Assembly (NCBI RefSeq): GCF_032062105.1
Contig: NW_026920964.1
Coordinates: 1 to 64,000 of the forward strand
Source: Saccostrea cucullata
Taxonomy: Eukaryota
DNA: 64,000 nucleotides
Reading direction: 5' to 3'
Translations under genes and position numbers: made by a program
Shown: positions 43,516-64,000 of the stretch, in pieces
Position numbering within the stretch: the first letter of the stretch is position 1
How the letters are laid out: each line of letters starts with the position of its first letter
The notes under the pieces: model-generated
Databases searched by the model: none
Seen by the model: only the letters and a program-made list of their open reading frames with translations
Told to the model about the DNA's origin: nothing

Positions 43516-45264
43516 ATGGACTTACAGGCAGAATCAGTGTTTGTTATCTTCAAGTTTCGTCCAAGCTATTCAAAGCCTGAAACAAAAATGAGCATTATGA
43601 AAATACGTAATACAGCATTGACAAAGCCACCAATTTGTGATCCATTTCACGGAAAGATAGAATTCTACTGCAACACATGTACAAGAGACCTTTGTGTTCC
43701 TTGTAAGGAGAAACATGTAATAGATTTGGACACTATGTATCATGATGTAGTAATACGTCAATTAAAGAATGGAATTATGGTATCAGAGGCGTGTAAAAGA
43801 CACAAAGACAGAAAATATGACCGTTGGTGTCTGTCTTGTGAAAATCCACTTTGTGTCAAGTGTAACGAACACCAAGAACATGAAACACACGATATAGATC
43901 CATGTTGCGTGGTGTGCAGAGAAGAGAGCAATATCAGTATTATTCACCTCCGAGGTGAGATACTTCCTTATAGTATGGCTATCTTTGCGGATATAAAATC
44001 TGACCAGAAAACAGAAAAACATCGAGCGGAATCATTCGAAATCATGGAAAAAATGAAAAGAAAAGCTCAGAGACTAAAGAATTTTATCGATAAAAAAATG
44101 CGAAAGGAATGTACCAAATTAAATTCTCAAATAATCTCATTAATTTATCAGCAGCGAAAGCGACATTTAAAAAAAATTATGAAATATGAACATAGATTTG
44201 AACAGTTATCAAACAGACCAGTAGGATTCCTTTCATGGGTTAAGAGGTTTCAAGTTCCTAAACTGAATGGAATTCATGAGGATTTGAGTTGTTTAATAGG
44301 AAATATCCAACAGAAAGAGATAGGGAAAAGGCAAGTAAGAAATGACTTTCTCCTGGAAATTATGCTCGAAATTGATATGTTTCACGAATCTATAATTGTG
44401 ACAGACATGTTAGAGATCGATGAAGATGACAATTGGATTCGTCATATTTCCCTTGGATTACCAAACACAATCTGGATAAGTGATAAAAATAGCTTAATCT
44501 TGATAGATACAACTGGTGACACTCTGGATCAGCTGGCAGTTACAGATATTGGAACGGGTGTACATACAGTGACCAACGAAAAAGAACTTATTTACATTAA
44601 TGAAAATGAGAACATCTGCAAATTATCAAAAGACAACACAACCGAATCAACAATTATATTAAAATCAGATCCATGGAGGCCTCTCTGTGTCTACAGCTCC
44701 ACTTTAAATGGAGATCTATTGGTTGGATCTGGTAAATATGAGAAAGACAATCAAACAGAATCCAAAATAAACCAGCATTTTCCTACGGAGGCCAGAGTAA
44801 ACCGATACGATAGCAAAATGTTAAAGATCCAAACTATCCAATACAAAAGGCGTAAAAAGAAAATGTATAAGTGTCCTGCATATATAACAGAAAACAGTAA
44901 CGGAGATGTTATTGTGTCCGATAAAAGATCTTCGCATAGTGATGATAATGGTGTTGTCGTCGTAACGGACCGTCAGGGAATCTTTCGGTTCTCCTACAAC
45001 GGACCTCCATTCGAGAGCCAATCATTTTTTCCTTGTGGGATTTGCACAGACGGACTATCAAACATTGTGGTGTGTGATCACAACTCAGGCACCGTTCAAT
45101 TGATTAACAAAGATGGACATTTTCTTATGTATCTCTTGACTTCCCCAGACATCATGCCACCATGGAGTCTTGCCTATGATGAAATTAACCACCGTTTATT
45201 GGTTGAATCAAGTATATGTGAAATATTCTTATACAGATACATTAACAGGAAGGATTACTATTAA
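43516..45264 (+). CDS. RING-less TRIM-like protein: B-box x2, coiled coil, NHL-like propeller (intact, second subfamily; start may be the ATG at 43588)
   Basis: FYCNTCTRDLCVPCKEKH, CKRH..WCLSCENPLCVKC; PAYITENSNGDVIVSD, PCGICTD; uninterrupted 582-aa ORF. Confidence 0.9.
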   Translation: MDLQAESVFVIFKFRPSYSKPETKMSIMKIRNTALTKPPICDPFHGKIEFYCNTCTRDLCVPCKEKHVIDLDTMYHDVVIRQLKNGIMVSEACKRHKDRKYDRWCLSCENPLCVKCNEHQEHETHDIDPCCVVCREESNISIIHLRGEILPYSMAIFADIKSDQKTEKHRAESFEIMEKMKRKAQRLKNFIDKKMRKECTKLNSQIISLIYQQRKRHLKKIMKYEHRFEQLSNRPVGFLSWVKRFQVPKLNGIHEDLSCLIGNIQQKEIGKRQVRNDFLLEIMLEIDMFHESIIVTDMLEIDEDDNWIRHISLGLPNTIWISDKNSLILIDTTGDTLDQLAVTDIGTGVHTVTNEKELIYINENENICKLSKDNTTESTIILKSDPWRPLCVYSSTLNGDLLVGSGKYEKDNQTESKINQHFPTEARVNRYDSKMLKIQTIQYKRRKKKMYKCPAYITENSNGDVIVSDKRSSHSDDNGVVVVTDRQGIFRFSYNGPPFESQSFFPCGICTDGLSNIVVCDHNSGTVQLINKDGHFLMYLLTSPDIMPPWSLAYDEINHRLLVESSICEIFLYRYINRKDYY

Positions 45265-46682: not shown

Positions 46683-49555
46683 AATCATGTTAAAAATGAC
46701 AAAACAGGCTCATAAAGTAAAAAATAATATTGATAAAAATGCGGATGGAATCTACTAAATTAAATTGTCAACTAATCTCATCAAAATTTCAAATTTTACA
46801 AGAACATATTAAAAAAATGATGAAATATGAACATGAATTTGAAGTTATCAAACAGACCAGTCGGATTCCTTTTATGGCTTAAGAAGTTTTATAGTCCTAA
46901 AATAAATGAATTTAAGAAAGAGATGATTTGCTTAATAGGAAAATACAACAAAGATAAGGAAAATTAAAATAGGAAATGAGTCTCTCCTGAAAATGTTCAA
47001 ATATGAGATCCAAAAATTTATAATCTGACAGATATCACAACAGTACGACCAAAGGATAAGTACACTTAAGGAATACTTTATGGACCCTATTTCTGGGCCA
47101 AATTTTTTTTAAAGAATATAATACCGAATCGTTTTCTTTTGGTAATAGTTAAATAGTATTGAATATTTCTAATCAAAAAATCATTTTAAGCATTATCTAA
47201 ATCAGCAAACGTATAAAACAATGGACTATTTTAGATGCCTATATATATATACCCAGATCTCGAAAAGTCGTACCGAATCCACTTTGAGTTTCGTTTATTT
47301 AAATCGAGGGTGGAAACATTTGAACAATCCGATGACGGTTCATCGATGGGTGTATTTACCGATTAATACTTTTTTCTGTTTTGCATTTTAAAAAATCGAA
47401 TGAGGTTGTGTAGATGCCCGAAGCGATATAAAGGAACTCAACTTCATTGCACGCTTGTATTAAAAAAATAAGTATTTATATTAGTTTCTTTGAATTTTGG
47501 AAATAAAAAAAGAGTATTAAGGTAGATTTTATTAGGGTCTCATTGTCTTGCATGAACGATAACAATGTTGACACTTTTATAAACGACACTGAGCTCTCTT
47601 TACCCCCTAGTGTTGAATACTGTCTGTTATCTCCATATCCTTCCTTCCCCGAGTGTTTCTAAAACCAAATACATACAATCATCTCTAAGCAGCACGAATT
47701 TAATAATAGAAAGACTGGCTATGCAGTGAGCACCCTTGGGGAATGTTTACTTGGGTAGAACTCAGGTGACTATCAGTATTTTAAAAAAAAATTCTACTTT
47801 TAACTTTTTATACATTTTTAATATTTTATAAATATATAAAGCATCTTTTATCATTCGCACAAGTTTGCACAACGTTAGGCTCATGTTAGAAGGGCTTCTC
47901 GATTAACTATAGGATATCACGAATGTCGGCTGATCCCTACCACATTGTATGGCTTTGCTCTTTGTATATTCATGATTTTCAGTGGTAAAAATTATTGAAT
48001 CGTATGGTATATATATCAATTGATAACTTGAAATGAAAAAAATTGATTTATTTGATTCTTTATTTTTTCATGTTTTACATGGGGCCCATAAGTGCACTCG
48101 TTCTTTCCCTTAAATTACCGAGCAAAATCTGGGTTAGTGATAAAAATAGCTTAATCTCGACAAATATAACTGATAATAGACTGCACTAGCTGGCAGCTAC
48201 AAATATTGGTACTGGTGTACATAGAGTGACAACAGAAAAGGAACTCATCTAAATAAATATTGGTTCTGGTGTACATACAGGGACCAGAGGAAAGAAACTC
48301 ATTTACATAAATATTGGTACTGGTGTACATACAGGGACCAGAGAAAAGGAACTCATTTACATAAACATTGGTACTGGTGTACATAGAGTGACCAGAGAAA
48401 AGAAACTCATTTACATAAACATTGGTTCTGGTGTACATACAGGGACCAGAGAAAAGGAACTCATTTACATAAACATTGGTTCTGGTGTACATAGAGTGAC
48501 CAGAGAAAAGGAATTCATTTACATGAATATTGGTACTGGTGTACATAGAGTGACCAGAGAAAAGGAACTCATTTACATAAATATTGGTACTGGTGTACAT
48601 AGAGTGACCAGAGAAAAGGAACTCATTTACATAAATATTTGTTCTGGTGTACATACAGGGACCAGAGAAAAGAAACTCATTTACATAAATATTGGTACTG
48701 GTGTACGTAGAGTGACCAGAGAAAAGAAACTCATTTACATAAATATTGGTTCTGGTGTACATACAGTGACCAGAGAAAAGAAACTCATTTACATAAATAT
48801 TGGTACTGGTGTACATACAGTAACCAGAGAAGGGAACTCATTTACATAAATACTGGCACGGGTGTTCATACAGGGACCAGAGAAAAGAATTCATTTACAT
48901 AAATATTGGTACTGGTGTACATAGAGAGACCAGAGAAAAGAAATTCATTTATTTAAATCGAAATGTTAACATTTACAAACTATCACAAGACACCACAACA
49001 GAGTCAACATTTATAAAGAAATCAGACCCTTGGAGACCACAATGTGTCTACAGCTCAATGGAGATATAACTAAACACTTTCCTTCGGAAGCCAACGCTTT
49101 CCTTCGGAAATAAATAAACTGATACACCAGCAAAGGAGAAAAACCAAAAATGTCCAATACAGACGGTGTAAAAAGAAAATTTATAATAGCCCTGTATATA
49201 ACAGAGAATAGAAATGGAACTATATTTGTGTCATATACAAGACCCTTACATTGTGAAGATAATGGTGCCGTTGTTGTTCCAGACCGTCGGGAAGTCTTTC
49301 GGTTCTAGAGACTCCCATTTTTTCCATGCAGGATTTGTACAGACGCACTATCAAACATCCTGATGTGTGATTGCAACTCTGTCGACGTACACATTAATGA
49401 CAAAGACGGGAATTGTCTTATATGGCTGGGTGCAGACATGATGTCATGGAGCTCGAGTATAGTATAGGATGACAAAAATCATCCTTTATGAGATGGAACA
49501 TACGTATGTTAATTATGTATATAAAGATACATTAATAGGAAAAATTGTTTTTAAA
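46683..49555 (+). pseudogene. TRIM-like pseudogene (paralog of 43516-45264) interrupted by a ~1.06-kb insertion (~47050-48112) and a 54-bp repeat expansion
   Basis: 46800-47040 matches the coiled-coil region 44160-44410; 48113-49550 matches the NHL region 44455-45264, with stops and frameshifts. Confidence 0.85.
48202..48955 (+). repeat. 54-bp minisatellite, 14 units, encoding NIGTGVHTVTREKELIYI
   Basis: Units start every 54 bp from 48202; units 12 and 13 are 53 bp; single ancestral copy at 44545-44598. Confidence 0.97.
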
Positions 49556-50001
49556 ATTGAATGACGAAAAAAATTGAATAATAATTATAACCTTTATTTA
49601 TTCATGATAACACTTTTAGCTTAAAGCTAGATTTTTTTACTTTGTTGTTCATCATTTTAACACATTTACATTCACATATGGGCATATAAAATTAGCATCT
49701 TAATATAAACACTAGATAAAAAAAAAGAACAAACATATGCAGATATATATAGGCATGAAGAATCATATTTTTAACACTAAATAGATTGGCACACTCAAGG
49801 ATCGGGGGAAAATCCGGTTTAAGCATTGAATCTGTTAAAATACTCGGTAGATACACAGAATTAAAAATATCCACTAAACTAAAGGTTGTAATATTTTTGG
49901 CAGCTTGTTCCATACAAATGCATTATAAATATGTAAATAATGAATATCCCAGTAATATAATAGATAGGATTTTAATATCACGTATGTTTATTTACTTTCA
50001 G

Positions 50002-50327
50002 CTAATGATTCAAAGGGAAACATCCGAAATCATGTTGCAGATGACAAGAAAATGTCAGAGACTGAAGGATTTTATCAATAAAGAAATTCAAAAGGAATTT
50101 ACTGAAATAATGTTTCAATTAATCTCAACGAAATTCCAACATCGAAAAAAGCATATCGAAAACATGATGAGATATGAAGATCAATTTGAACAGTCAGCAA
50201 ACAGGCCAGTAGTATTCCTTTTATGGCTAAAGAAGTTTCCAATTCCTAAAATGAATGAAATTAAGGAAGAGGTGATTTGTTTAATGGGAAAAATAAAACA
50301 GAAAAGGATAGGGAGAAGGCAAGTAAA
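50002..50327 (+). pseudogene. TRIM-like coiled-coil fragment disrupted by the Gypsy insertion
   Basis: QRLKDFINK..RYEDQFEQSANRPVVFLLW..IGRRQV matches the paralog at 44040-44340 and ends exactly at the LTR. Confidence 0.85.
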
Positions 50328-50618
50328 TGTAGTACAATTTGTATCCTGTGCCGAGCCCCTATATGTATTCCCGTGTTGTACCCCTTTTGTGTATGTGTGC
50401 GTATGACGTCACGCTTTCGTGTGTAGCCAGTAGAAGAAGACGCCATTCCGTGTAAGAAACCACTGGTAACTTTTGTGAACTATTTCGACCTGCTGTGTGC
50501 GGCCAGGGGCTGCTGTGTGCGCCTCACATATATAATAACTTGCTGCTGTGTGCGCTCGTTATCTCTGTATATTTGTGTATTGGTTAACTGCATTGTTTAT
50601 GTAATAAATGTCATTACA
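50328..50618 (+). repeat. 5' LTR of Ty3/Gypsy element
   Basis: TGTA...TACA ends, AATAAA near the 3' end, followed directly by a PBS. Confidence 0.85.
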
Positions 50619-50622
50619 ACAT

Positions 50623-50635
50623 TGGCGACGAGGAT
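50623..50635 (+). promoter_or_regulatory. Primer-binding site, tRNA-Ser(GCU)-type
   Basis: TGGCGACGAGGAT is complementary to the 3' end (..AUCCUCGUCGCCA) of eukaryotic tRNA-Ser(GCU). Confidence 0.75.
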
Positions 50636-51324
50636 AAACGGCGCGAAACATCCGGCCATGTGCTTCTGAAAAATATCAAACTCAATTTTACTTTAGATAA
50701 CGATTCAGAACCCATATATTTTAATTTGTACTAGTTTATTGGATAGGTTTATTCACACATAGAGTTATTTTTGGAAGATAAGGGTTAATTTACAAAATTT
50801 ATTGTTCGTTCGAATTTCCTCAGAATGTAAGAGTAGCCAAGTTCTGCATAGGCTTGCAGTTATACTTGTTATTTTAAGTAGGTAATCGCATTCTTGTCAT
50901 CCAAATACACCAGGGTTAATAGCTCTTCCATTTTTAAGTCCTGTTTCCATATAAATAACAAAATTGTACTTATTTGTAGAAAAAAAAGTATACATTAAGA
51001 AAAAAACAGTTTAAAACCCCCCTCTCCATTCCTTAGAGTGGAGGCGCACTGCAGTACAATTACCCATTTCTTTTTAGAAAGGAATAAAATAAAGGTTCAT
51101 TCAATTGCTTTGCATATAACTAACTAACACCTGTGTTAATTTTTGATTTCATCAAACAGCAAATACTGTTTACCTTACCAATTGCTCCCTAGCAATTTGT
51201 GTATGGTTATTTGCCATAATTAAATTGCTAAATCTTTCTACTTTCTTTCTTTCTATCTATTGTTTAACATCAAAATAAAAGTTTGTACTGCTGTTTTTTT
51301 CAATAAATATCACAAACATTGAAC

Positions 51325-53088
51325 ATGCGTGTAAATATTCAAACCGCCACTGAGGAAGAGCTCCAAACTTTAGAGAACATTGGAGAAAAGAGAGCTCAAG
51401 CTATCATCCAATTACGAGATATGCTGAATTTTCCTATTTCCATTCAACTGCTGGCTTATGCCTCAACAATCAAGGAAGGAGTATGGCAGCAGTGGATAAA
51501 TGAAGGCCGCATTGAATTAGACGACAACAACGGACGACCAAGTAAAGCTGCAGGTAATGAAGATCTTAGTCATGAACTAAGACATACCAACCAGAAATTA
51601 GAGGTCTGTTATTTTGAAAAGGAGGATCTGCACCACAGGTTAAATATGCAGCAGGGCAGAATGCAAATGCAGGCAGAGGAGCTTCATAGTAAAGACTTGG
51701 CTCTAAAGGAAAAAGAGACTCAAATTTTTGAACTTCGAAAAGAGCTAGATAGACAAAGACCCGTAAACATACCAAACTTGCCACTGGGTTATCCACAGAC
51801 ACCTTTGGACAGGGCAGGAATTAAGCATGAACCCATGACACCGCATCTGACCCCTTTGAGGGCAGAACCTGGACAACGCACCTTGGAAGGAGGACACATG
51901 ATGACTGGTATTAGGTCTCATTCACCATTTGAGTTGGGATCAATGCAGTCATTTACTGCATTTCCTTCCTCTGGAGGACCATCCTTTCAATCTTCTACCC
52001 CGTGTAGTGTGGGTGGCGCAAATATACAACTGGATTTTGACCATCAGCGATCTACTCTTGGAGATAGATTTTCCAGTGCCGACCTGAGACAACCAAAAAA
52101 GAGACATACACAGGCTACTAGATATAGAGGAGAAAGTAGCTCTGGCTCATCAGACTCGGAAGATTCCTGTGAGTCCGATGACTCACTTAACTTATCCAGA
52201 AGGAAAACTCGGCATGGTAAATCCCGGAGGAGCCCATCAAGACCTAAGATGCCTACCTTTCGTGGCGACAAGAACTGGGACTCGTTTATCTTCCAGTTCC
52301 AAAGACAAGTGAAACAATATAATTGGAGTGAGCAAAAAGCAAAGGGAAGGCTACTTGACTGTCTGCAGGATGAGGCGTTAGATTTTGCACGTGAACTTAC
52401 ACATTGTAGCTATCAGGATCTCTTAAAGAAGATGTCAAGGCGATTCAGTACAAAGGAGGCACTCATATCTGCGAGACGACAGTTACAATTTGTACGACAG
52501 AAGGAAGATGAAACTTTTGAGGAGTTTTCTCAAAAAGTCCATTTTCTAACCATGGATGGACTTCCAGAAGCAAACGACAGCACTGTTGATCAAATGGCGG
52601 TTGAAGCTTTCCTAAGGGGATGCAAGGATAAGGAGGCTGCTCACCTTGCTATGGAAAAGAACCCAAAGAGTATTTACAAGGCCTTGAAGTATGTCAAAGC
52701 AGCTGTAAATAATCGCAAGGCACTGTTCGGTTCACGAGCTAATTACAGTACTCGTCGTGTAAGTTTCCAAGACGACTGTGTTGAGCCAGCTACAGACGAG
52801 GCATGTATTCGCACTCTTCATGACTCAAAACGAGACTCCTCAGAAAAACTTGAAGGCCTGATCTCCAAGCTAATAGGACTTATGGAACGGAAGGACCAGC
52901 CAAGGTCAAGGTCACCGACACCCCCATCAAGTCCACAACGCCGTCGCTGTTACCTCTGTAAGGGTTATGGTCATTTGCAAAGGGATTGCCCTCAGGCTAG
53001 AGACAAGGGGAGGAGCCCTAGCCCAGATAAAAAGGATTTAAACTTCAGAGGACTGGGCGGATCGGCCAACACTCAGTTCAGCCAATAG
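51325..53088 (+). CDS. gag: Gypsy Gag with N-terminal ComEA-like helix-hairpin-helix, coiled coil, capsid and CCHC knuckle
   Basis: VNIQTATEEELQTLENIGEKRAQAII; PTFRGDKNWDSFIFQF..QKEDETFEEF capsid-like region; CYLCKGYGHLQRDC. Confidence 0.88.
   Translation: MRVNIQTATEEELQTLENIGEKRAQAIIQLRDMLNFPISIQLLAYASTIKEGVWQQWINEGRIELDDNNGRPSKAAGNEDLSHELRHTNQKLEVCYFEKEDLHHRLNMQQGRMQMQAEELHSKDLALKEKETQIFELRKELDRQRPVNIPNLPLGYPQTPLDRAGIKHEPMTPHLTPLRAEPGQRTLEGGHMMTGIRSHSPFELGSMQSFTAFPSSGGPSFQSSTPCSVGGANIQLDFDHQRSTLGDRFSSADLRQPKKRHTQATRYRGESSSGSSDSEDSCESDDSLNLSRRKTRHGKSRRSPSRPKMPTFRGDKNWDSFIFQFQRQVKQYNWSEQKAKGRLLDCLQDEALDFARELTHCSYQDLLKKMSRRFSTKEALISARRQLQFVRQKEDETFEEFSQKVHFLTMDGLPEANDSTVDQMAVEAFLRGCKDKEAAHLAMEKNPKSIYKALKYVKAAVNNRKALFGSRANYSTRRVSFQDDCVEPATDEACIRTLHDSKRDSSEKLEGLISKLIGLMERKDQPRSRSPTPPSSPQRRRCYLCKGYGHLQRDCPQARDKGRSPSPDKKDLNFRGLGGSANTQFSQ
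53037..53043 (+). promoter_or_regulatory. -1 ribosomal frameshift slippery site T_TTA_AAC (gag to pol)
   Basis: Heptamer is in the correct gag phase; the -1 frame is open into the protease ORF at 53109. Confidence 0.8.
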
Positions 53089-53473
53089 ATGATGGCCAGA
53101 CATTACCGATGAATGAGAGTCTGGATGAAAATTATGAAACATGTCATGAAGAGATGGAGGAAACACCAGATGTATCACTCTTGTCATTGGATGAGCTCGG
53201 TCATGAACTGAATTCATCTACTGACAGGGATGTTAAGGAAATATTAGCAAAACAAGTAAATGTAGCTAGCCTAGTGATCCCTATCCATATACATTCAAAG
53301 AAAGTCTCTGCTGTAATAGATACTGCTGCTCAAGTGTCTGTAATGAATCTTCAACTCGCGAGAGAATTGGGACTGATGATTGACGACAAGCAGTTCATAT
53401 ACCTAAGGGGTGTGGTACCTGATGAAAGGATACCTGGGTATATAATTAAAAGTGTACCAATTTGCATAGGTAG

Positions 53474-56400
53474 TGTGGCGAATCACAATCACACGGAAAT
53501 CTTCTTTTTATAATTTATTATGACGATTAAAGGCAATAACAAATCCACAAGGGTTAACAATCAAAATACCACATTGGCTAAGATAATCAGATGGTTTCTG
53601 ATATGTATTCAATATTTCTTCAATGTAAACTCAATACAAAATCGATAAACTCAATAGTTATCAAGATCACAAAAACTCTCATATATATAGTATCGAAGAA
53701 ACATCTAGAAATAGAAACTTCGATAAAATTCTAGATCATCACATTCTTAAATATTCTAGAGACTTCTTGATAATTAATTCACGAAACATTTAGAACATTC
53801 TAGATTATACCTGTACATCATTCAATTTCTAGAAAATGCATTAAAATTGCGACAATTTGCAACACTCCCAAGACCAAGGAAAGTTAATTTAATTGTTCCT
53901 TTATCAGTTTTGTCGCTCTTTCAGCGGCCTGTCTTTTTGCTCTAGGTAATGGAGGAATACCATCGACTGCTGGCTCTTCCTTCGTCATATCACTATCACC
54001 AAGGTCAGATTTATCGGTGCATTCTATGGGATAAAGTAAATTTAACGGTCGGTTTAATGTTCTTTTGTTAGGTAACATTACCTTTCCGGACCTGTATTGT
54101 CCATCTTTACTCATTGTCAAATCGCAAATTCTTCCAATCTTCCAGCTTCCTCTAGGGAGATCTTCTTTGATGAGGACAACATCACCAATTTGTACCGGCC
54201 TGTTGTCTTGAATACGTTTTCCTTTTAATTTATAGGATGTTCTTTCTCTTAGACTTAAAAGATACTCATCTCTCCATGTCCTCCAGAATGTATCTAAAAG
54301 TCGTTGACCTTTTTTCCAAATTGCCAGTAAAGTGTTTACAGAGCTTGCAACAGGTACATAGTCTGGGTCCATGGGATCAAAATTTTCACTATCTTGAAGT
54401 CCTATTTTTGGATTCAAAGTGAGGAAATGCGCTGGAGTAAGGGTGATGTTTGAATTAATATCGTCTCCAATATAGACTAAGGGTCTCGAATTCACGACTG
54501 CTTCAGCTTCTGCAAGCATCGTTCTCATTTGCTCATTTGTTAAACAGAGTTTTCCTATAGTTTTTCTTAAGCATCGTTTGACAACACCAACCAGACGTTC
54601 ATAAAATCCTCCCATCCATGGTGCCAGTTCCACAATAAATTGCCACTGAATCTCTTCATTTGCAATATAACTTTGGACATCATTATCAGACGTAACCTTT
54701 TCCCAACTTTTATCCAAAACCAGGCTTGCAAGTTTAAATTGAGCACCATTATCAGAGATAATTTGTTTTGGCTTGCCCCAACGCGCAATAAATCTCCTTA
54801 GTCCTAGGAGAAACTGTTCTGTGGACATGTCCTGCATGAGTTCAAGATGTATGGCCCTTACTACCAAGCAGGTAAATAGACAGACCCATACCTTTTTATT
54901 GCCAGTTTCTGTTTTGATGAAGATTGGTCCAAAGTAATCCACTCCCGTGTACGTAAATGGTGCTGATTCACTCACACGTTTCTTTGGTAGTGGAGGCATC
55001 AGTGGCATCTTGTATGGACCACCCTCAAACCGCTTACAGATTGTGCATTTATGAAGTATTCTTTTTACTTCTGCTCTTCCCTGCGGAATCCAGTAGTCTT
55101 GACGAACCAATGACAGTGTTTGGGAGACTCCAACATGAAATGATTTTTTGTGGATGTAATCAATAATCAGTCCCGTCACATGGTTCTTTCTTGGAAGGAG
55201 GATAGGAGATCTTGCACCTTCTGTCAGCTGAGCATGCTTGAGTCTTCCAATGCATCTGATAATCCCTTCCTGATCCAATACAAGTCCTAATTGACTAATT
55301 AAATTATTTCTCTTATTTTCCTTGAGTGAGGTTTTGACATCACCATAGTTTTGAGTCTGGATATTCTTGATTATAAGAATTTTAGCATTCTGTAGTTCTG
55401 AGTAAGTTAGATGGTTCCATGGCATTGGAATTTTCTTCACTCTTTTGATAAACCTAAGAGTCCATGCTAAAACTCGAGTAAGGTTTATAAATGATGAAAA
55501 ATTTTGGTAGTCAATGATGTTTGGATATCCAGTTGATTCAGAATCTGAGTTGTTATTTCTTCCGTTAGGACTCTCCCCAGCCACCAGTTTTGCTTCATAA
55601 ACTATCTTTGGAGTCTTGCATTCTGATTCTATGACACTCTGCATTTCTTTACAGGTTTGTTGACTGTTCCATGAAGGCCAATTGTCTTTCCTTTTAATTA
55701 ACCATTCTGGACCATTCCACCATTGTTCAAATTCTTGAAGAGTTTTAACTGCTGTTCCTCTGCTTGCAATATCAGCTGGATTATCTTTTGTAGACACATA
55801 TTGAAAAGTGATATCTTTGTTGTTTCTGATTTCTTTTACTCTGTTTTCCACAAAAGTTTTAAGAGGTTTCTTCATTCTTATCCAATGTAATACACATTGG
55901 GAATCGGTCCAAAGGATCTTTTCTGTGACAGGTAACTTCAGTTGTTGTTCAACAAAGTTAATGCAGCGGACTCCAATGACAACAGCCAGTAGTTCCAATC
56001 TAGGCAGTGTTATTTTCTTGAGTGGCACTAACCGAGTTTTTGAAAACAACAGGTTGACAGTACTTCTTTCTTTTTTGCTCTGGTGTAAATAGATCGCACA
56101 GGCGTACGCTTTAGTTGATGCATCACAAAAGCACATTAATTTGTATGTCACTGTACCAGTGAGTCCTATAAAACGAGGAATAGGGCAATTGGGAATATCA
56201 TCCAGGTCTGCGGATATATTTTCCCAGCGCTGAATGTCTTCTTTGGTCAGTTCTTCATCCCACTCTTTCTTTTGGTTCCATGATGTTTGTAGAAACAACT
56301 TTGTTCTCAAAGTAACTGGGGTGAAGAATCCAAGTGGATCAAAAACAGAAGCAATTCTTTGAAGGACTTTCCTCTTGGTGATAGGTGGAATATGAGTTTC

Positions 56401-59400
56401 ATCTTTTGGACTGTTTATGAATAGGGAGTCCTCAGAAAGTTTCCAAGACAAACCAAGAATTTTTATGGTTTCTCTGTTTGCTTGATCAGCTTGAGGAATA
56501 CACTGGCTAAATTCTGTGGAGTTAGATGCCCAGTCTCGTAAATTCATTGACATGGTACTGAAGATCTCTTTGGCGTCTGTATATAGTTTCCTAGCCTCTG
56601 AGACGGACTCTACACCAGTGATAACATTATCCACGTAAATATTGCTTCTTATGTTTTCAGCTGTTGCAGTGTTGTAGTTTCCAAGATGGTAATCTAAAGT
56701 TGCAGCTAATAGAAAAGGGCTTGATATAACTCCAAATGGAACTCTCGTAAATCTATATACTTGAATATTGTTCTCTGTGGATGGAGTTTCAATATCCTTT
56801 AACCAAAAAATCTTGTCACATCTCTGTCCTTTCCTTGTAATTCAATCTGTAGAAATGCCTTTTCTATGTCAGCAATAATTGCAATCCTTTTCATTCTAAA
56901 TCTCATCAACAGTCCACACAAATCATTTAGCATTACTGGTCCTCTGTAAAGACACTCGTTAAGGCTGTTACACTCTGGTTTGACCTTTGCCGATGCATCA
57001 TAGACGATCCGTACTTTTGTGGTAGGCTTTGTTGGATCAATGACAGCATGATGGGGTATGTAGTGTTTGATACTATTCTTCACTTCACTGCTCTTTGTCA
57101 CCTTTTCAATTATGCCTTGCTTGCACTGGTCCTGAATTATTCCATCATATTGGTGAAGCAGCTCAGGGTTCTTTTTTAATTTTTGAAGTAGAGATTTCAA
57201 CCTTCCAAAAGCAAGTTCTCTGTTCTCTGGGAGTTCAGGTTGCTCATCCTTCCAGGGCCAAGTGACTTGATATCTACCATTGACTAGTTTTATTGTGTCG
57301 TTAAAGTTTTTTAAAGCCTTGTCATCATCTGATGAATGGGGCTGATCCTTGATTCCAATAGTTTCCAAGTTCCAGTACTCGTCTAGTGATGGCTTCAAGG
57401 GCAAACATTCATCGACAGACGAATGAAGACAATATTCCGTTGTTAGATTGTTTCCATTTACAATCAGCATTTGGTGTAAATTATCTCTGGATACCTCAAA
57501 GTTAGCTTGTGTTCTTCCAGTGAGAATCCATCCTACCTTTGATGAGAGCAAGTAAAGTCCATGGTCAACTTCAATTTTTTCTGATGATACCAAATCAAGA
57601 TAATAGTCATTCCCAATAAGGATGTCTATGGTTGAATTCTCTGTAGTTTTTGGTAAGGTATCTGCAAACTGTAGATGTTTCCATTGGCACTGTACCTTTT
57701 CAATGATGTTAGGTGATAACGGTCTTCTGTGTATTGGTCCGGTTATTTGAGGCACAACATTTGCTTCAATTCTCATATAGTGTCCATCCTTCAGTTTAAT
57801 TCTTAAAGATACATTTGGAGTTTTTACTATTTTTGGTTTCGTGGATCCAAAGGTGACAAGTGATATTTCCTCTGTTCTTTTTCTTTTCAAATTCAATTTT
57901 GAAGCTAATTCCTCGGTAACATACGTTCTTTGAGATCCAGAGTCCATGAGAATTCTGATTGTTTCAAATCTCGATCCAATCAGATCTGATGCATCAATTT
58001 TTGCAGTTTGCATTAGGACCATACTTCCTGATGACAGTAGGCTGTTTTCTCGAACATTGTTAACTGTTTCTGAGTCACATAGTTCGGATGTTTCAACAAA
58101 GTGTGAGGTTTCTCTCAAAGGCAGCATTTTCTTGTTGCAGAGACTTCGGTGATGTTTCTTTGTCTGATGACAATGGAAACATGGTTTGTCGACTTTGCAG
58201 TCTTTGCTAAGATGACCTGGCCTAAGACAAATGTAACATCTTCCCTTAATCTTCTGTTTTCTATCTTCAACTGTCCTGAATTCTTGGCATTCGTCACTCC
58301 AGTGATTTTGTTCACAGAAGATACAAATGGGATACTTTCTTTGAATTTTGTTTCTTCTTGGAGATTCTTTAAATGATGTTGTTAAGGCTTCCGCAGATGT
58401 ATGTTTTCTTTCATGTTCATATAGCATTCCAGGTGATGGGGGTTTTCTAGCAGGTTGTTCTTCATGACCGGCTAGGTTTTCCATATCTGTAGACTCTCTG
58501 GCTGCTATGTAGTTATCAAGAAACATTCTCAGCTTTTGCACAGTCCACTTCTCTTTCTTTCCTTTCTGTATTTCTAATTGTAATCTGGCTTCTTTTGGTA
58601 ACTTCGTTATAATCATGGAAACAAAGACATCCTGGTTTACGTCCTGTTCCAATGCTTCTAGGCTGCGCATATGCTTTTCTAAATCATCAAATAGTCTACG
58701 GAGACTGGAAGTATTATTGAGTGCAGGCTTAATGTTTATAAGGTCCACGTAATGTTTGTTAATTACAGACTGCACATCTCCGAATCGTTCCTTCAATATG
58801 GAGAGAGCTACATCATAATTTTCACGGGAGAGCATGAGGCCGGAAATAGCAGATTGTGCCTTTCCTTCCATTTTACTTTTCAAGTAGTTGAACTTCTCAA
58901 TATTGGAAAGCCTTGTGTTTTTGTGTACGGAAGCTTCAAAGGAGTCCCAGAACTCTTTCCACTTTAACTTGTCTCCGTTGAATGAAGGGAGCTCAAACTT
59001 TGGTAGTTTAACTACCGGAGTCTCTTTGCAAATCTTCTCCTTTCTGTGCAGTTCCTGAATCTGGAGTTCTTGGAAATGCATCAGTTGTTCCTGCATTTTT
59101 GTCTGCAAATCTATCATGTGGTCGATTCGTGGGTTATTTGGTGCTTCACTTTTCATATATGGAATGTCCACTTGTTCCAGTCTTTTTTCCAATAGTAGAA
59201 GTTCTTCTGAGCGCTCTGTAACATCTGTGAGCAATTCAAACAACTTCTCACTATCTTCTGTAAATTTTTCAATTTCAGACTCATTGTCTTGTTTTGATTC
59301 CAAGGCAATGGAAAGTTCTTTCATCGATTCTTCTAATTTAGCACCAAAGTCCTTTAACCGTCTCAAGGAAGATTGAATCTGCCTTATCCTGGTTGTCAAA

Positions 59401-59963
59401 TCCTCTTCTTCAGCTTCTGAAGAAAGAAATGTCTTACTTTTGATCATTTCCTTCAGCAGTAGATTCTTGTACCTTGTACAAAGTCCTTTCAAGTATGAGG
59501 TTGACATCTTCTTCTTTTCCGTGATAACTTATTGATTTCAGGCTCCAATTCCCGGGTTCCGGCACCAAACAATGTGGCGAATCACAATCACACGGAAATC
59601 TTCTTTTTATAATTTATTATGACGATTAAAGGCAATAACAAATCCACAAGGGTTAACAATCAAAATACCACATTGGCTAAGATAATCAGATGGTTTCTGA
59701 TATGTATTCAATATTTCTTCAATGTAAACTCAATACAAAATCGATAAACTCAATAGTTATCAAGATCACAAAAACTCTCATATATATAGTATCGAAGAAA
59801 CATCTAGAAATAGAAACTTCGATAAAATTCTAGATCATCACATTCTTAAATATTCTAGAGACTTCTTGATAATTAATTCACGAAACATTTAGAACATTCT
59901 AGATTATACCTGTACATCATTCAATTTCTAGAAAATACATTAAAATTGCGACAATTCGCAACA
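53474..59963 (-). mobile_element. Full-length BEL/Pao LTR retrotransposon nested in Gypsy pol
   Basis: 391-bp LTRs (53474-53864, 59573-59963) differing at 2 positions by eye; 5-bp TSD GGTAG; tRNA-Phe-type PBS at 59550-59567. Confidence 0.97.
53884..59507 (-). CDS. BEL/Pao gag-pol polyprotein with a single frameshift at 56805-56810
   Basis: LPKFELPSFNGD gag, triple Cys/His knuckles, LMDSGSQRTYV protease, ADIEKAFLQI/YVDN RT, FCDAS RNase H, APWMGGFYERLV integrase. Confidence 0.9.
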
Positions 59964-62900
59964 GGTAGAACCTACCTTGCAGATCTCTATGCAGCAGACG
60001 TAACAGATAGTATTTTACTTGGATTGGATTTCTTAGTAAAATACAACTGCATTGTAGACTTAAAGGATAACATATTGCAAATAGGCAACAATACCATTAC
60101 CGGGATAGTCAAGAGAACTGAAAGTGGCACAGATGTTGACATAAGGAAAGTTTTCATGCAAGGAAGGACAGTCATCCCTCCAAATACAGTTTCCTGTACA
60201 AATGTTGTTATTGATGGACCCAACATTAATGATGATAGGCCTTTAGTCCTTGAACCTTTGAAGACCAATAGAAAGTTTGTCATGGCAGCAACCATAGTTG
60301 ATTCCGGGAAATCAGCTAGAGTCAACATTATGAACCCGACAAATGGTACAATTGTTATAAAGGCCGGGAAGCACATAGGCAATGCAATGGACTTCAGCGA
60401 GGAATTACGAGGTGTAGAACAATGTAACATAAAATGTGCTCAAACCAGTTAGCCAACCAGCCTCAGCAGAGGAACTGGATCTGCCTGAGCACTTGCGTGA
60501 ATTGTTTGTTAGAACTTGCAAGAACCTGAATGCTGATGAGGCTAACAAAGTCAAGGCACTGCTGAATAAGTATAGTGAAGTATTTGCAAAACATGACTTG
60601 GATTTGGGATGTTTTTCAGAGATTAAACATCAGATTAATACTGGATCTTCTTCCCCAGTGCGACAAAAAATGCGTAGAACTCCCTTTGGATTTGAAGGAG
60701 AAGAAGAGACACACTTACAAAAGATGTTAGATGCCAAAGTTATACAGCCTTCGACTTCTGAATGGTCATCTGCTCCTGTGTTAGTTCGTAAGAAGGATGG
60801 ATCGGTCAGATGGTGCATTGATTATCGCCAGTTAAACCAAAAGACAGTCAAAGACTCTTACCCCCTTCCTAACATAGAAGATTGTCTCTCAACATTGTCG
60901 GGCTCGATCTACTTTAGCACATTAGATATGGAGTCAGGGTACTATCAAGTAGAAATTGATCCAGCAGATCGGAAAAAGACAGCATTCATCACTAGATTTG
61001 GGCTGTTTGAGCATGTGCGAATGGGGTTCGGACTGTGCAATGCTCCCGCCACCTTCCAGCGAGTTATACAGCTTGTGTTGCGTGGCCTTACATGGAAGGA
61101 TGTCATTGCGTACTTAGATGATGTTAATGTTCTCGGCAAGTCCTTTGAAGAACATTTGAACAATCTCGATGTAGTCCTAGAGAGGTTTAGCAGATACAAC
61201 TTGAAGCTCAAGCCAAGAAAGTGCTTCTTATTCCAGACTGAATGTGAGTTTTTAGGGAAGCGAATTACTCGAGAAGGTGAAAGGATTTCCCCAGCCAAAT
61301 TGGATGCTGTACGGTCCTGGCCTGTCCCTACAGATAAGAAAGAAGTTGAATCTTTCCTTGGCTATGCTAATTATCATCGAGAACATGTACAAGGATATGC
61401 TGGGATTTCAAAGTGTCTGTATGAGCTAACAGGTTCAAAGGCAAAGCAATTTCACTGGACTACTGAGCACCAAGAGGCATTTGAACACTTGAAGACAGCA
61501 CTATCCTCAGCACCCTGTCTCGCTTACCCAACTCCTACTGATGACTTTATTTTAGACACTGATGCATCTGACGCAACAATAGGAGCTGAACTTATACAGT
61601 TGCAAGATGGAAAGGAACGGACCATAGCCTATGCCAGCCATGTTCTGTTACCAGTACAACGGAAATATTGCACAACACGCAAGGAGTTACTGGCAGTTGT
61701 GAAGTTCTGTCGTCATTTTCGTCATTATCTTTTGGGACGACGCTTCACGATACGAACTGACCATAACAGTTTAGTTTGGTTGTTTAGGTTTCGACACATC
61801 GAGGGGCAGTTATCTCGCTGGATAGAGGAACTCTCACAGTTTGATATGCAAATTGTTCATCGTAATGGGAACAAGCATTCCAATGCAGATGGCTTATCAC
61901 GTATTCCTGATAGATTGGAGGCTTGCGATTGTTATAATGCAGGTTCCAACTTGGAATCACTGCCTTGTGGAGGTTGCAATTACTGTACCAGAGCCTGTCA
62001 ACAGTGGGAGAGATTCTCAGAGGATGTAGATAACGTAGTACCGCTAGCTGTCAAGGTCATTAACCCTGAGCCAGGACAAACTGCAGAAGTGTTGAGAGTA
62101 GAGTACAACACTGATGTGCTAACAGATGATCTTTCCTTTGAAGTAAATTGGACAGAAACAAGAACAAAGGAAGAGGTATCAAAACTACAACATGAAGATG
62201 CAGATTTATCAGTATTGTTCCAGTGGCTAGAACAACCCCCTACATCACATGACTTGCTTCTGAGTAGCCCAGCCTCGAGGTCATACTGGATGTGCAAGAG
62301 TCAGTTGCTCATAAAGGACGGGATACTTTTCTATGCCTGGCGAGATGAAGCAAACCGGAAGCTATGCTTACTGGTTCCAAAAACCATGCAAGAAGAAGTC
62401 CTTTACGGTTGCCATGATATGATGTCAGCAGCGCATGTAGGCCAGGATAAGACATTGCAGCGAGTCAAACATCAGTACATGTGGTATCGTATGTCCCAAG
62501 ACTGCAGAGAATATGTCCAATCGTGCTCTGTATGCAATAAAAATAAGAAGTCGTCAGTCAAGCCCAAAGCCCCTCTTCAGCGACATCATGCAGGGTACCC
62601 AAAGGAGCGTGTTCATTTGGACATTCTTGGCCCATTTACACCTAGCGAACGAGGAAATGTGTATGTCCTTGTTATGATAGATCAATTTACAAAGTGGATT
62701 GAATGTGTAGCACTCCCAAATCAAACTGCTCAGCTAATAGCCAAAGAGTTCCTCCTCCACTTCATTGTGACATTTGGATTTTTACTCACTGTCCATACAG
62801 ATCAAGGTCGAAATTTTGATGGGGACCTGTTTAAGGCTTTGTGTAATGCCTTACAGATATCTAAGACAAGGACGACACCCTACCACCCATCTTCGAATGG

Positions 62901-63910
62901 ACAGGTTGAACGGTATAATAGGGTCCTTCTTCAGATGATTCGTTGCTACATAGAGGGCAAGGTCAGAACTTGGGATGTCGACTTACCTCTACTAGTAATG
63001 GCCCTTCATTCAACAGAGAACCGTTCTACAGGATATACGCCCAACAGACTCATGCTTGGACGTGAAGTTATTTTGCCACTTGATATTGTGACTGGAATGG
63101 CAAGTCTTACATTGACTGAATATGAGCCAAATGAATGGGTGAAGCATCTAGACAAGGTCATGATGGAGGCACACTCATTTGCGAGGAAGCAACTCGACAG
63201 TGTGCAGAGAAGACAGAAGCGCCTGTATGATTTGAAGCTAAATGAAAGGACATACACAGAAGGAGATGTCGTCTACAGGCTTAACGAGGCTACAACAGTA
63301 GGACAGAGTCGCAAGTTACAGTCGCCATGGAAGGGCCCTTACCTTGTCGTTTCAGCTGACCCACCATTATACACTGTTGTAGATCAGAAAGAGAGACAGT
63401 CCACTCTTCATCATGACAAATTAAAAAGATGTAATGACAGGGAATTGCCATTGTGGATTCGGCGACTGAGAAACAAGTATTTTGAAGAGGATGAGAGCTC
63501 ACCTGATGTTGATAGGGAGGAGAACAAATTAATTGGTACTGACAACAGCCTGGAGGATTCAGGTGAAGCAGATGATACTGTGATAGAGACAAATGAGCAG
63601 GACATTGTTGATGACATGGAGACAATTCAAGATGAATCTACAGAGACAAACAATCAGAATATTGTTGACGACATTGAGAAGAATCAAGATTTAGGATCCA
63701 CAGCTACAACCAGAGCAGGGAGAAAGATCAAGAAACCTGCTCATCTGGAAGATTATGTATAATTACAAGTTGTGCTCTTTTTATTTGGTTTTATTGTGCC
63801 AGGCAGGCATAAGTCAAACTTATTGAGGTCATTTATCTCAATAAGGTACTAATACTTGTATATTATTTCATGATGTAATCATTAGTAGTTTCTATTTTTT
63901 GTACAGCAAT

Positions 63911-64000
63911 ATGTCTGACTACATGGAAGAAGCATTGTTCGTGCCAGATTATGAAGAAGATATGGAAGATGATTCAGTGAAAGTGCCAGAGAGACCAAAG
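63911..64000 (+). CDS. Possible third ORF of the Gypsy element (acidic N-terminus, runs off the window)
   Basis: Pyrimidine tract plus TACAG acceptor ending at 63906, ATG at 63911, 30 open codons MSDYMEEALFVPDYEEDMEDDSVKVPERPK. Confidence 0.4.
   Translation, partial: MSDYMEEALFVPDYEEDMEDDSVKVPERPK

Follow-up and report, generated by a model that had tools for sequence, protein, structure and literature searches.

A predicted ComEA-type helix-hairpin-helix domain at the start of Gag in a broad Ty3/Gypsy lineage

Bacterial ComEA binds DNA through a helix-hairpin-helix (HhH) domain in which individual residues have been probed. The substitution K166A left ComEA-Gs with no DNA binding in a gel shift, and its Bacillus equivalent, K164A, cut transformation more than 100-fold (PMC9747964). 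In Vibrio ComEA, K63 is key for DNA binding, K62, G60 and R71 matter too (R71 being read as structural), and variants without either HhH motif appeared to lose DNA binding (PMC3879209). BAF also binds DNA via an HhH motif; as a dimer it bridges stretches of viral DNA and so blocks autointegration (PMC3381236). Among retroelement proteins, MLV p12 is a Gag-encoded tether that has been proposed to keep the complex containing the capsid on chromatin (PMC6021111). The N-terminal extension of Ty3 Gag runs outward, with 36 residues lacking defined secondary structure (PMC6525542), and in dArc1 and dArc2 the capsid domain is preceded by 41 and 28 residues, the N-termini forming exposed spikes of which some are suggested to point inward (bioRxiv 10.1101/697193).

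Here we describe a Ty3/Gypsy Gag from Saccostrea cucullata that begins with a predicted ComEA-type two-hairpin HhH domain (Gag residues 1-66; 51325..51522 on the + strand of the window, i.e., of the whole 64,000-nucleotide stretch of DNA analysed). HhH domains and Gypsy Gags are each known; what is new is their combination, together with a remodelled second hairpin. The open-access literature that we searched yielded no account of a Gypsy Gag with an HhH domain. The clades of a mollusc LTR survey (MolGy1-16) are defined by RT and RNase H, and the word 'helix' is absent from its main text (PMC6238403). A candidate precedent, the CERV helical domain of Cer1, proved unrelated to the HhH head. One mussel member is automatically annotated as 'Helix-hairpin-helix domain-containing protein', and other database names given to members are ERC2/CAST, interaptin-like, SSX2IP and 'competence ComEA-like'. 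As far as we searched, the head is thus visible in databases and undiscussed in the literature, and it provides a protein marker for a large Gypsy group that is mislabelled in databases.

The open reading frame (ORF) that carries the domain runs from an ATG at 51325 to 53088 (+ strand, 587 aa). Read from stop to stop it starts at 51307, i.e., just six open codons 5' of the ATG, and its second methionine is residue 33, in a fair start context. Upstream we read from the sequence a 5' LTR of 294 bp (50328..50621, +, TG...CA) and, one base past its end, a primer-binding site starting with TGG (50623..50635, +), which we take to be for a serine tRNA. In other copies, on public contigs, the flanks diverge at both LTR ends, and one has a G-run directly before the LTR start. 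An AT-rich 5' leader follows (50636..51324, +; leader length 703 nt), with merely three tiny upstream ORFs, whose ATGs open 3, 1 and 6 codons. The middle of Gag is a predicted capsid-like core (52237..52734, +, about residues 305-470), for which Foldseek matches the PNMA2 capsid (E 2.9e-5), dArc1, Arc and the Ty3 capsid; Pfam PNMA and Retrotrans_gag both score under their cut-offs on this Gag. A CCHC zinc knuckle (52945..52995, +; Pfam zf-CCHC, residues 541-557, over cut-off) precedes the overlap with pol, where a putative heptamer TTTAAAC (53037..53043, +), also read from the sequence and also present at the gag end of a metagenome locus (L001), is likely a -1 frameshift site. The pol frame starts with an aspartic protease (53031..53473, +) and resumes after an insertion (59964..63762, +), where the last part of the protease region is followed by RT, RNase H and integrase. 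The order is thus protease, RT, RNase H, integrase, and among solved structures the RT is nearest to Ty3 (E 4.6e-78). The capsid-like core, the CCHC knuckle, the pol order and the Ty3-like RT together identify the ORF as a Ty3/Gypsy gag.

The match to HhH domains lies at the very start of this Gag. On the first 80 residues, Pfam HHH_3 matches residues 2-34 with 30 bits (E 5.7e-7, cut-off 27) and Pfam HHH scores 26.6 bits (cut-off 24); HHH_3 gives 30.5 bits on residues 1-70, and on the full-length Gag the two profiles give 26 and 22.8 bits, both just below their cut-offs. Sequence matches in the PDB are EEPD1 (E 1.1e-5, from two stretches) and ComEA (8dfk, E 0.0054; 8dss, E 0.013). A sequence search with residues 1-75 alone returned no match at E <= 1 among 12 candidates, and a profile search with the HhH family did recover relatives that this query had not. 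In the ESM Atlas, residues 1-75 fall in HHH_3 clusters (top 0.92, 150 of 256 features); the same search for a mussel relative gave no HhH-Gag cluster (top 0.82). A family profile trained without this Gag scores it at 67.8 bits; the maximum is 5.2 bits for reversed proteins and 3.4 bits for any other frame of the window. Such left-out, reversed-protein and window controls matter because the profile was trained iteratively on the same relatives, which is circular. The domain opens a retrotransposon Gag at its Met1, downstream of an LTR and a primer site, and has neither the secretion signal or membrane anchor nor the bacterial genome of a ComEA protein: the Gag head is a ComEA-type domain, not a ComEA protein.

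The initial annotation had quoted an N-terminal peptide as a ComEA-like HhH motif. That peptide does stand at the start of the ORF at 51325, and its identity is borne out by the HHH_3 score over cut-off on residues 1-80 and by a ComEA-like predicted fold. The motif was rightly located at the Gag start and drawn too short, since its 39 codons cover only part of a predicted folded unit that comprises residues 1-66. The two outcomes that had been named as counting against the motif, a missing HhH match or fold and a downstream translation start with the segment unconserved, are not what we found.

A model of residues 1-70, built on a 56-row alignment (this Gag and 55 relatives), has a pLDDT of 93.3 and four helices (10-14, 21-33, 40-47 and 51-59). 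Its best match among 48,161 solved chains, and the sole one with Z of at least 8, is Geobacillus ComEA 8dss (Z 9.1), which superposes on 63 residues with an rmsd of 2.2 A and 35% identity. The next matches are all HhH proteins, i.e., 2duy (Thermus ComEA), Tex, PolC and TEFM, with KIF22 at rank 7, and the transcription-linked neighbours are Tex (Z 7.2), TEFM (Z 5.5) and Spt6 entries. Foldseek on the head model found no match at E <= 0.001, the best being ComEA 8dss (E 0.2, probability 0.99), and a viral structure library yielded weak ComEA-like matches only, from giant viruses and unnamed proteins, with E of at least 0.13. The head is therefore predicted to be a complete ComEA-type domain, in which two HhH motifs pack without a connector helix as in the ComEA DNA-binding domain (HHH_3, PF12836; 8dss, 8dfk, 2duy). 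Both have the glycine of hairpin 1 and a basic residue at the position of K166/K63. They differ in hairpin 2, which in the Gag head lacks the Gly-x-Gly and the lysines and has a conserved Trp, and in context: the head is fused in front of Gag and has a predicted coiled coil instead of a membrane anchor or oligomerisation domain.

To see how widely the head is shared, we gathered relatives with the capsid core alone against 1.84 billion representatives, and the HhH could therefore not bias the list. The best 150 of 2,246 matches, plus four from another search, gave a set of 154. Fewer than 190 residues precede the core in 69 of them, which we read as mostly shortened gene calls, and one of these carries the head. 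Among the 85 with at least 190 residues, 64 have the head at 20 bits or more, six have a weak or partial trace and 15 have none. Pfam HHH_3 by itself recognises 46 of the 56 rows of an alignment (A2) at E <= 0.01, these rows having been preselected as HhH-positive. There is no drop with distance: the head is present in 11/17, 24/29, 15/23 and 14/15 relatives in successive bands of falling core score. On a quick, unrooted tree of 86 cores it occurs in every major branch; we found no clade lacking it on this tree, where the 15 headless rows are isolated tips spread over the branches and require 14 changes, the same as in shuffles. The simplest reading of these sequences is that the head is ancestral, with shortened gene calls or sporadic losses, an unrooted tree alone being blind to gain versus loss. 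A single gain at an early stage of the lineage is probable. The suggestion that the domain defines a distinct lineage stands in so far as relatives share it, and needs widening in that it marks a broad lineage rather than one family. The start of the protein is conserved along with the head: in 61 of 65 relatives the HhH match begins no later than residue 15, and in the three closest metagenome loci (L001-L003; RT identity to this copy 69% for L001 and 64% for L003) the earliest Met in the open frame coincides with the head.

The named hosts of head-bearing relatives are Mytilus edulis, M. galloprovincialis and M. coruscus. No relative was found in the viral contigs or in the prokaryote genomes that were scanned, and no HhH was found in two distant relatives, P0011 and L005; a further one of the five metagenome loci (L004) begins at a contig edge and is uninformative on the head. 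A Candidatus Thiodiazotropha metagenome assembly includes an HhH-Gag (P0059 and P0215) on contigs of 3 kb, likely host DNA binned with the symbiont. P0018, P0030 and P0033 form a small supported clade (SH-aLRT 98) with a weak (partial in P0018) or missing head, a candidate for true loss. At locus L002, positions 1903-7684 hold two LTR-like repeats, a primer site and an HhH and Gag core in broken frames; pol gave no match there, and the element may be a non-autonomous one of the HhH-Gag type.

The pattern of conservation differs between the two hairpins. The heads of 65 relatives have a mean pairwise identity of 26%, and A8, L13, G20, A24, I27, R31 and W54 are retained in 53 to 59 of them (G20 in 53, R31 in 56). 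At 50-60% core identity the head averages 37% identity (19% when shuffled) and the linker 25% (22% when shuffled); measured in this way, the head has been retained across the sampled lineage while the adjoining linker diverged almost to shuffle level. In this copy hairpin 1 has G20, K22, R23 and R31 and is rated intact. R23 aligns to K166 of ComEA-Gs (by sequence alignment and structural numbering), and its column is K/R in 46 of the 65 relatives and something else in 19. By register, K22, G20 and R31 would correspond to K62, G60 and R71 of Vibrio ComEA. Column 22 is basic in just 10 of the 65, and the first glycine of hairpin 1, which is Asn in this copy, is Gly in just 31. In hairpin 2, the column of the second ComEA glycine is Pro in 31 relatives, Ser in 13 and Gly in 3, the column of ComEA K195 is K/R in six, and the Gly-hydrophobic-Gly with lysine is gone; the next ComEA Leu is replaced by Trp (W54) in 57. 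The head is net acidic (-5 in this copy, family median -2). With hairpin-1 residues kept and the hairpin-2 signature lost, the alignment indicates that one DNA-contact face is retained and the other remodelled. Of 334 differences in four public runs, the 40 best supported include 19 in gag: both of those in the HhH are synonymous, and eight of the 17 downstream are non-synonymous, numbers too small to serve as a selection test.

Behind the head, a long helix (51556..51759, +, residues 78-145) is predicted to form a parallel two-stranded coiled coil, and a predicted disordered linker (51760..52236, +; residues 146-300, pLDDT <50) ends in a Ser/Asp-rich and basic stretch. In the model of the full Gag the head is followed by a helix (78-144), a disordered stretch (146-300), the core and finally the knuckle; the pTM of 0.27 is low enough that these domains are not positioned relative to each other. 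For two copies of residues 1-150, the dimer prediction scored 0.53, against 0.25 for the best of three controls, with an interface at 78-145 in heptad register, at least 80% of contacts shared across runs and a partner pLDDT of at least 78. Of 30 solved microbial pairs, 21 passed the mark for a dimer, against none of 23 single chains; for eukaryotes, 17 of 29 pairs passed (7 of 16 from animals) and none of 30 single chains. Among the seven eukaryotic pairs without an older solved relative just one passed, and the pass may thus reflect generic coiled coils. By a crude heptad score, 48 of 65 Gags have a heptad window that exceeds every one of 20 shuffled versions of the linker it belongs to, and a basic cluster lies within 40 residues N-terminal of the core in 43 of 65. 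We conclude that the coiled coil is predicted to pair two Gag chains. The capsid-like core, the CCHC knuckle, the gag-pol overlap and the pol order are common to this element and to Ty3/Gypsy Gags and derived capsids (Ty3, dArc, PNMA2). In contrast to Ty3 and dArc, about 300 residues precede the core here, with a predicted folded HhH head and a long helix.

We tentatively favour, as the leading possibility but at less than even odds, a role as a chromatin tether, in which a predicted ComEA-type HhH domain paired by a predicted coiled coil would bind double-stranded DNA without sequence preference and hold the particle or pre-integration complex on host chromatin. Hairpin 1 alone would contact DNA, via the hairpin backbone and R23. 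A single head, touching DNA only in this way, would bind weakly, and strength would come from the pairing of heads and from many copies per shell. The heads would stand outside the shell on a long flexible linker, like the N-terminal Gag extensions of Ty3 and dArc, so that they would meet host DNA first. They would do the job of MLV p12 with a DNA-binding fold rather than a nucleosome-binding peptide. MLV p12 and the chromatin-binding sequence of foamy-virus Gag are likewise Gag-encoded parts proposed to hold the capsid complex on chromatin, but they are short nucleosome-binding peptides, whereas here the part is a folded domain of a DNA-binding family, and the likeness is a functional analogy only. 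Several observations weigh against a tether: the loss of the hairpin-2 ComEA signature, given that Vibrio variants missing either motif seemed unable to bind DNA, the 19 of 65 relatives without K/R at column 23, the Asn in place of the first hairpin-1 glycine, the net acidic head, the lack of a Foldseek match at E <= 0.001, a dimer score that generic coiled coils might also give, the suggested inward dArc N-termini, and the 21 of 85 relatives with long N-termini that score below 20 bits. The protease may also cut the head off the capsid protein, which would count against it.

The alternative that survives best, though we think it unlikely, is that the dimeric heads act as a built-in BAF: by bridging and compacting the DNA newly made by the element itself, they would shield it and prevent self-integration. 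BAF itself uses an HhH motif and cross-bridging by a dimer (PMC3381236); like the predicted Gag-head dimer, it presents two HhH motifs to DNA, and a predicted two-headed dimer would follow the same logic. BAF is, however, a host protein acting in trans, without a sequence or structure match to the Gag head among the matches listed; its absence from the 50 structural matches listed for the head says little either way. BAF is described as highly conserved in multicellular eukaryotes (PMC3381236), so that the host likely supplies it. Some dArc N-termini perhaps point inward (bioRxiv 10.1101/697193), but in Ty3, and for most of the dArc copies, the extension leads out of the shell, away from DNA made inside, and this capsid topology, if it applies to the present Gag, favours tethering over shielding.

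Somewhat less probable is a head that keeps the fold as a protein-interaction or assembly module and has given up nucleic-acid binding. Such a change would suit the remodelled hairpin 2 with its new near-invariant Trp (57 of 65), the net acidic charge and the 19 of 65 relatives whose key column is neither K nor R. A structural role would explain all of the most conserved columns (A8, L13, A24, I27, R31 and W54), and R71 of Vibrio ComEA was read in this way (PMC3879209). Yet G20 (53 of 65) and a basic residue 23 (46 of 65), which occupy DNA-contact positions of ComEA, are conserved in heads of 26% mean identity.

We consider it improbable that the head binds nucleic acid at another step, keeping new Gag near chromatin or on the element's RNA and so aiding the selection or export of the genome that is to be packaged. 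Its transcription-linked HhH neighbours (Tex, TEFM, Spt6), the basic cluster ahead of the core in 43 of 65 Gags and the common occurrence of nuclear Gag in retroelements (PMC6042332) are in line with this, but the closest match is a DNA-binding ComEA domain, and Gag already has a CCHC knuckle for RNA. Finally, that the HhH match arose by chance, or is an untranslated fragment private to this copy, might be argued from the full-length Pfam scores just below cut-off and from the Met at residue 33 with its fair start context, but we reject it as extremely improbable given the head in 64 of 85 relatives with long N-termini, the independent Pfam matches, an HhH match that begins no later than residue 15 in 61 of 65 relatives, the confident structure model with its fold match, and the same start in three independent DNA loci.

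The head was likely captured by the Gypsy lineage, and domain scores bear on its possible source. Per domain, the family profile gives Bacillus and Geobacillus ComEA 56 and 54 bits, EEPD1 35.5 and 28.8 bits and KIF22 30 bits (PDB versions only), and a ComEA-like protein from the profile search aligns to the family at a probability of 98%. Over whole proteins, where two of its stretches contribute, EEPD1 is the top match (E 8e-18). On the per-domain scores, which cover about 60 residues and only the PDB versions of EEPD1 and KIF22, the better-matching candidate donor is of bacterial type. EEPD1 (9yi2) and the chromokinesin KIF22 (2edu) carry the same domain family in eukaryotic hosts, with lower per-domain scores, which makes a host donor possible, and giant viruses also have ComEA-like domains (weak structural matches). 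Head and core distances are correlated positively but weakly (Mantel rho 0.115, with 2 of 999 permutations as high, 64 proteins), and head swaps between families are therefore possible.

Taken with the tether, these results allow a wider reading, which we regard as possible but doubtful: a broad, unnamed Gypsy lineage of marine animals would have taken up a ComEA-type domain early, possibly from bacteria, and made of it paired, DNA-gripping capsid spikes that dock on chromosomes or bridge the element's own DNA without host BAF. If the donor was bacterial, this would be an old cross-domain capture by a retroelement. To our knowledge, how the particles of non-enveloped LTR retrotransposons reach and hold chromosomes in animal cells is poorly worked out, and a 66-residue head across dozens of divergent families offers a simple handle: one domain, R23 and one helix predicted to dimerise.

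The copy in the window is broken. A BEL/Pao LTR element (53474..59963, - strand) lies in its protease region, flanked by a target duplication of 5 bp (53469-53473 and 59964-59968), and the Gypsy pol switches reading frame near 60433-60452. With this insertion inside pol and the frame change, the copy is not autonomously mobile; its gag frame is open. The BEL/Pao LTRs are 99.5% identical over 391 bp (two differences), i.e., the insertion is young, and a break near 56799-56841 divides its coding sequence between two long frames. A second copy of the Gypsy LTR was not found within the window; the 3' LTR would fall beyond base 64000, as only 238 bases separate the pol stop from the window end, and a target-site duplication of the Gypsy element is likewise beyond what the window can cover. 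Near-identical DNA occurs in 20 of the 24 public runs listed, at half of the words or more in five; runs labelled as oyster metagenome contain just a minor fraction of the words. One contig from a public DNA run covers the leader, the start codon, the HhH domain and the core uninterrupted (51019-52601), so the junction of domain and Gag is not an assembly artefact. Contigs over the HhH domain are also found in RNA runs, contigs by themselves being no sign of transcription.

Several minor features surround the element. After the pol stop, an acidic open frame (63911-64000, +), whose ATG lies behind a pyrimidine-rich, acceptor-like stretch, runs off the window and could be an extra 3' gene of the Gypsy element. 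Between protease and RT, 60219-60395 (+) has a weak match to Pfam Herpes_ORF11, a dUTPase-like family (E 0.0028, under cut-off), and loci L001 and L003 have a similar-looking stretch. Just 5' of the LTR, older repeats of 75-88% identity link 44163-45128 and 46804-50292, and a tandem array with a period of 54 bp occupies 48094-48987.
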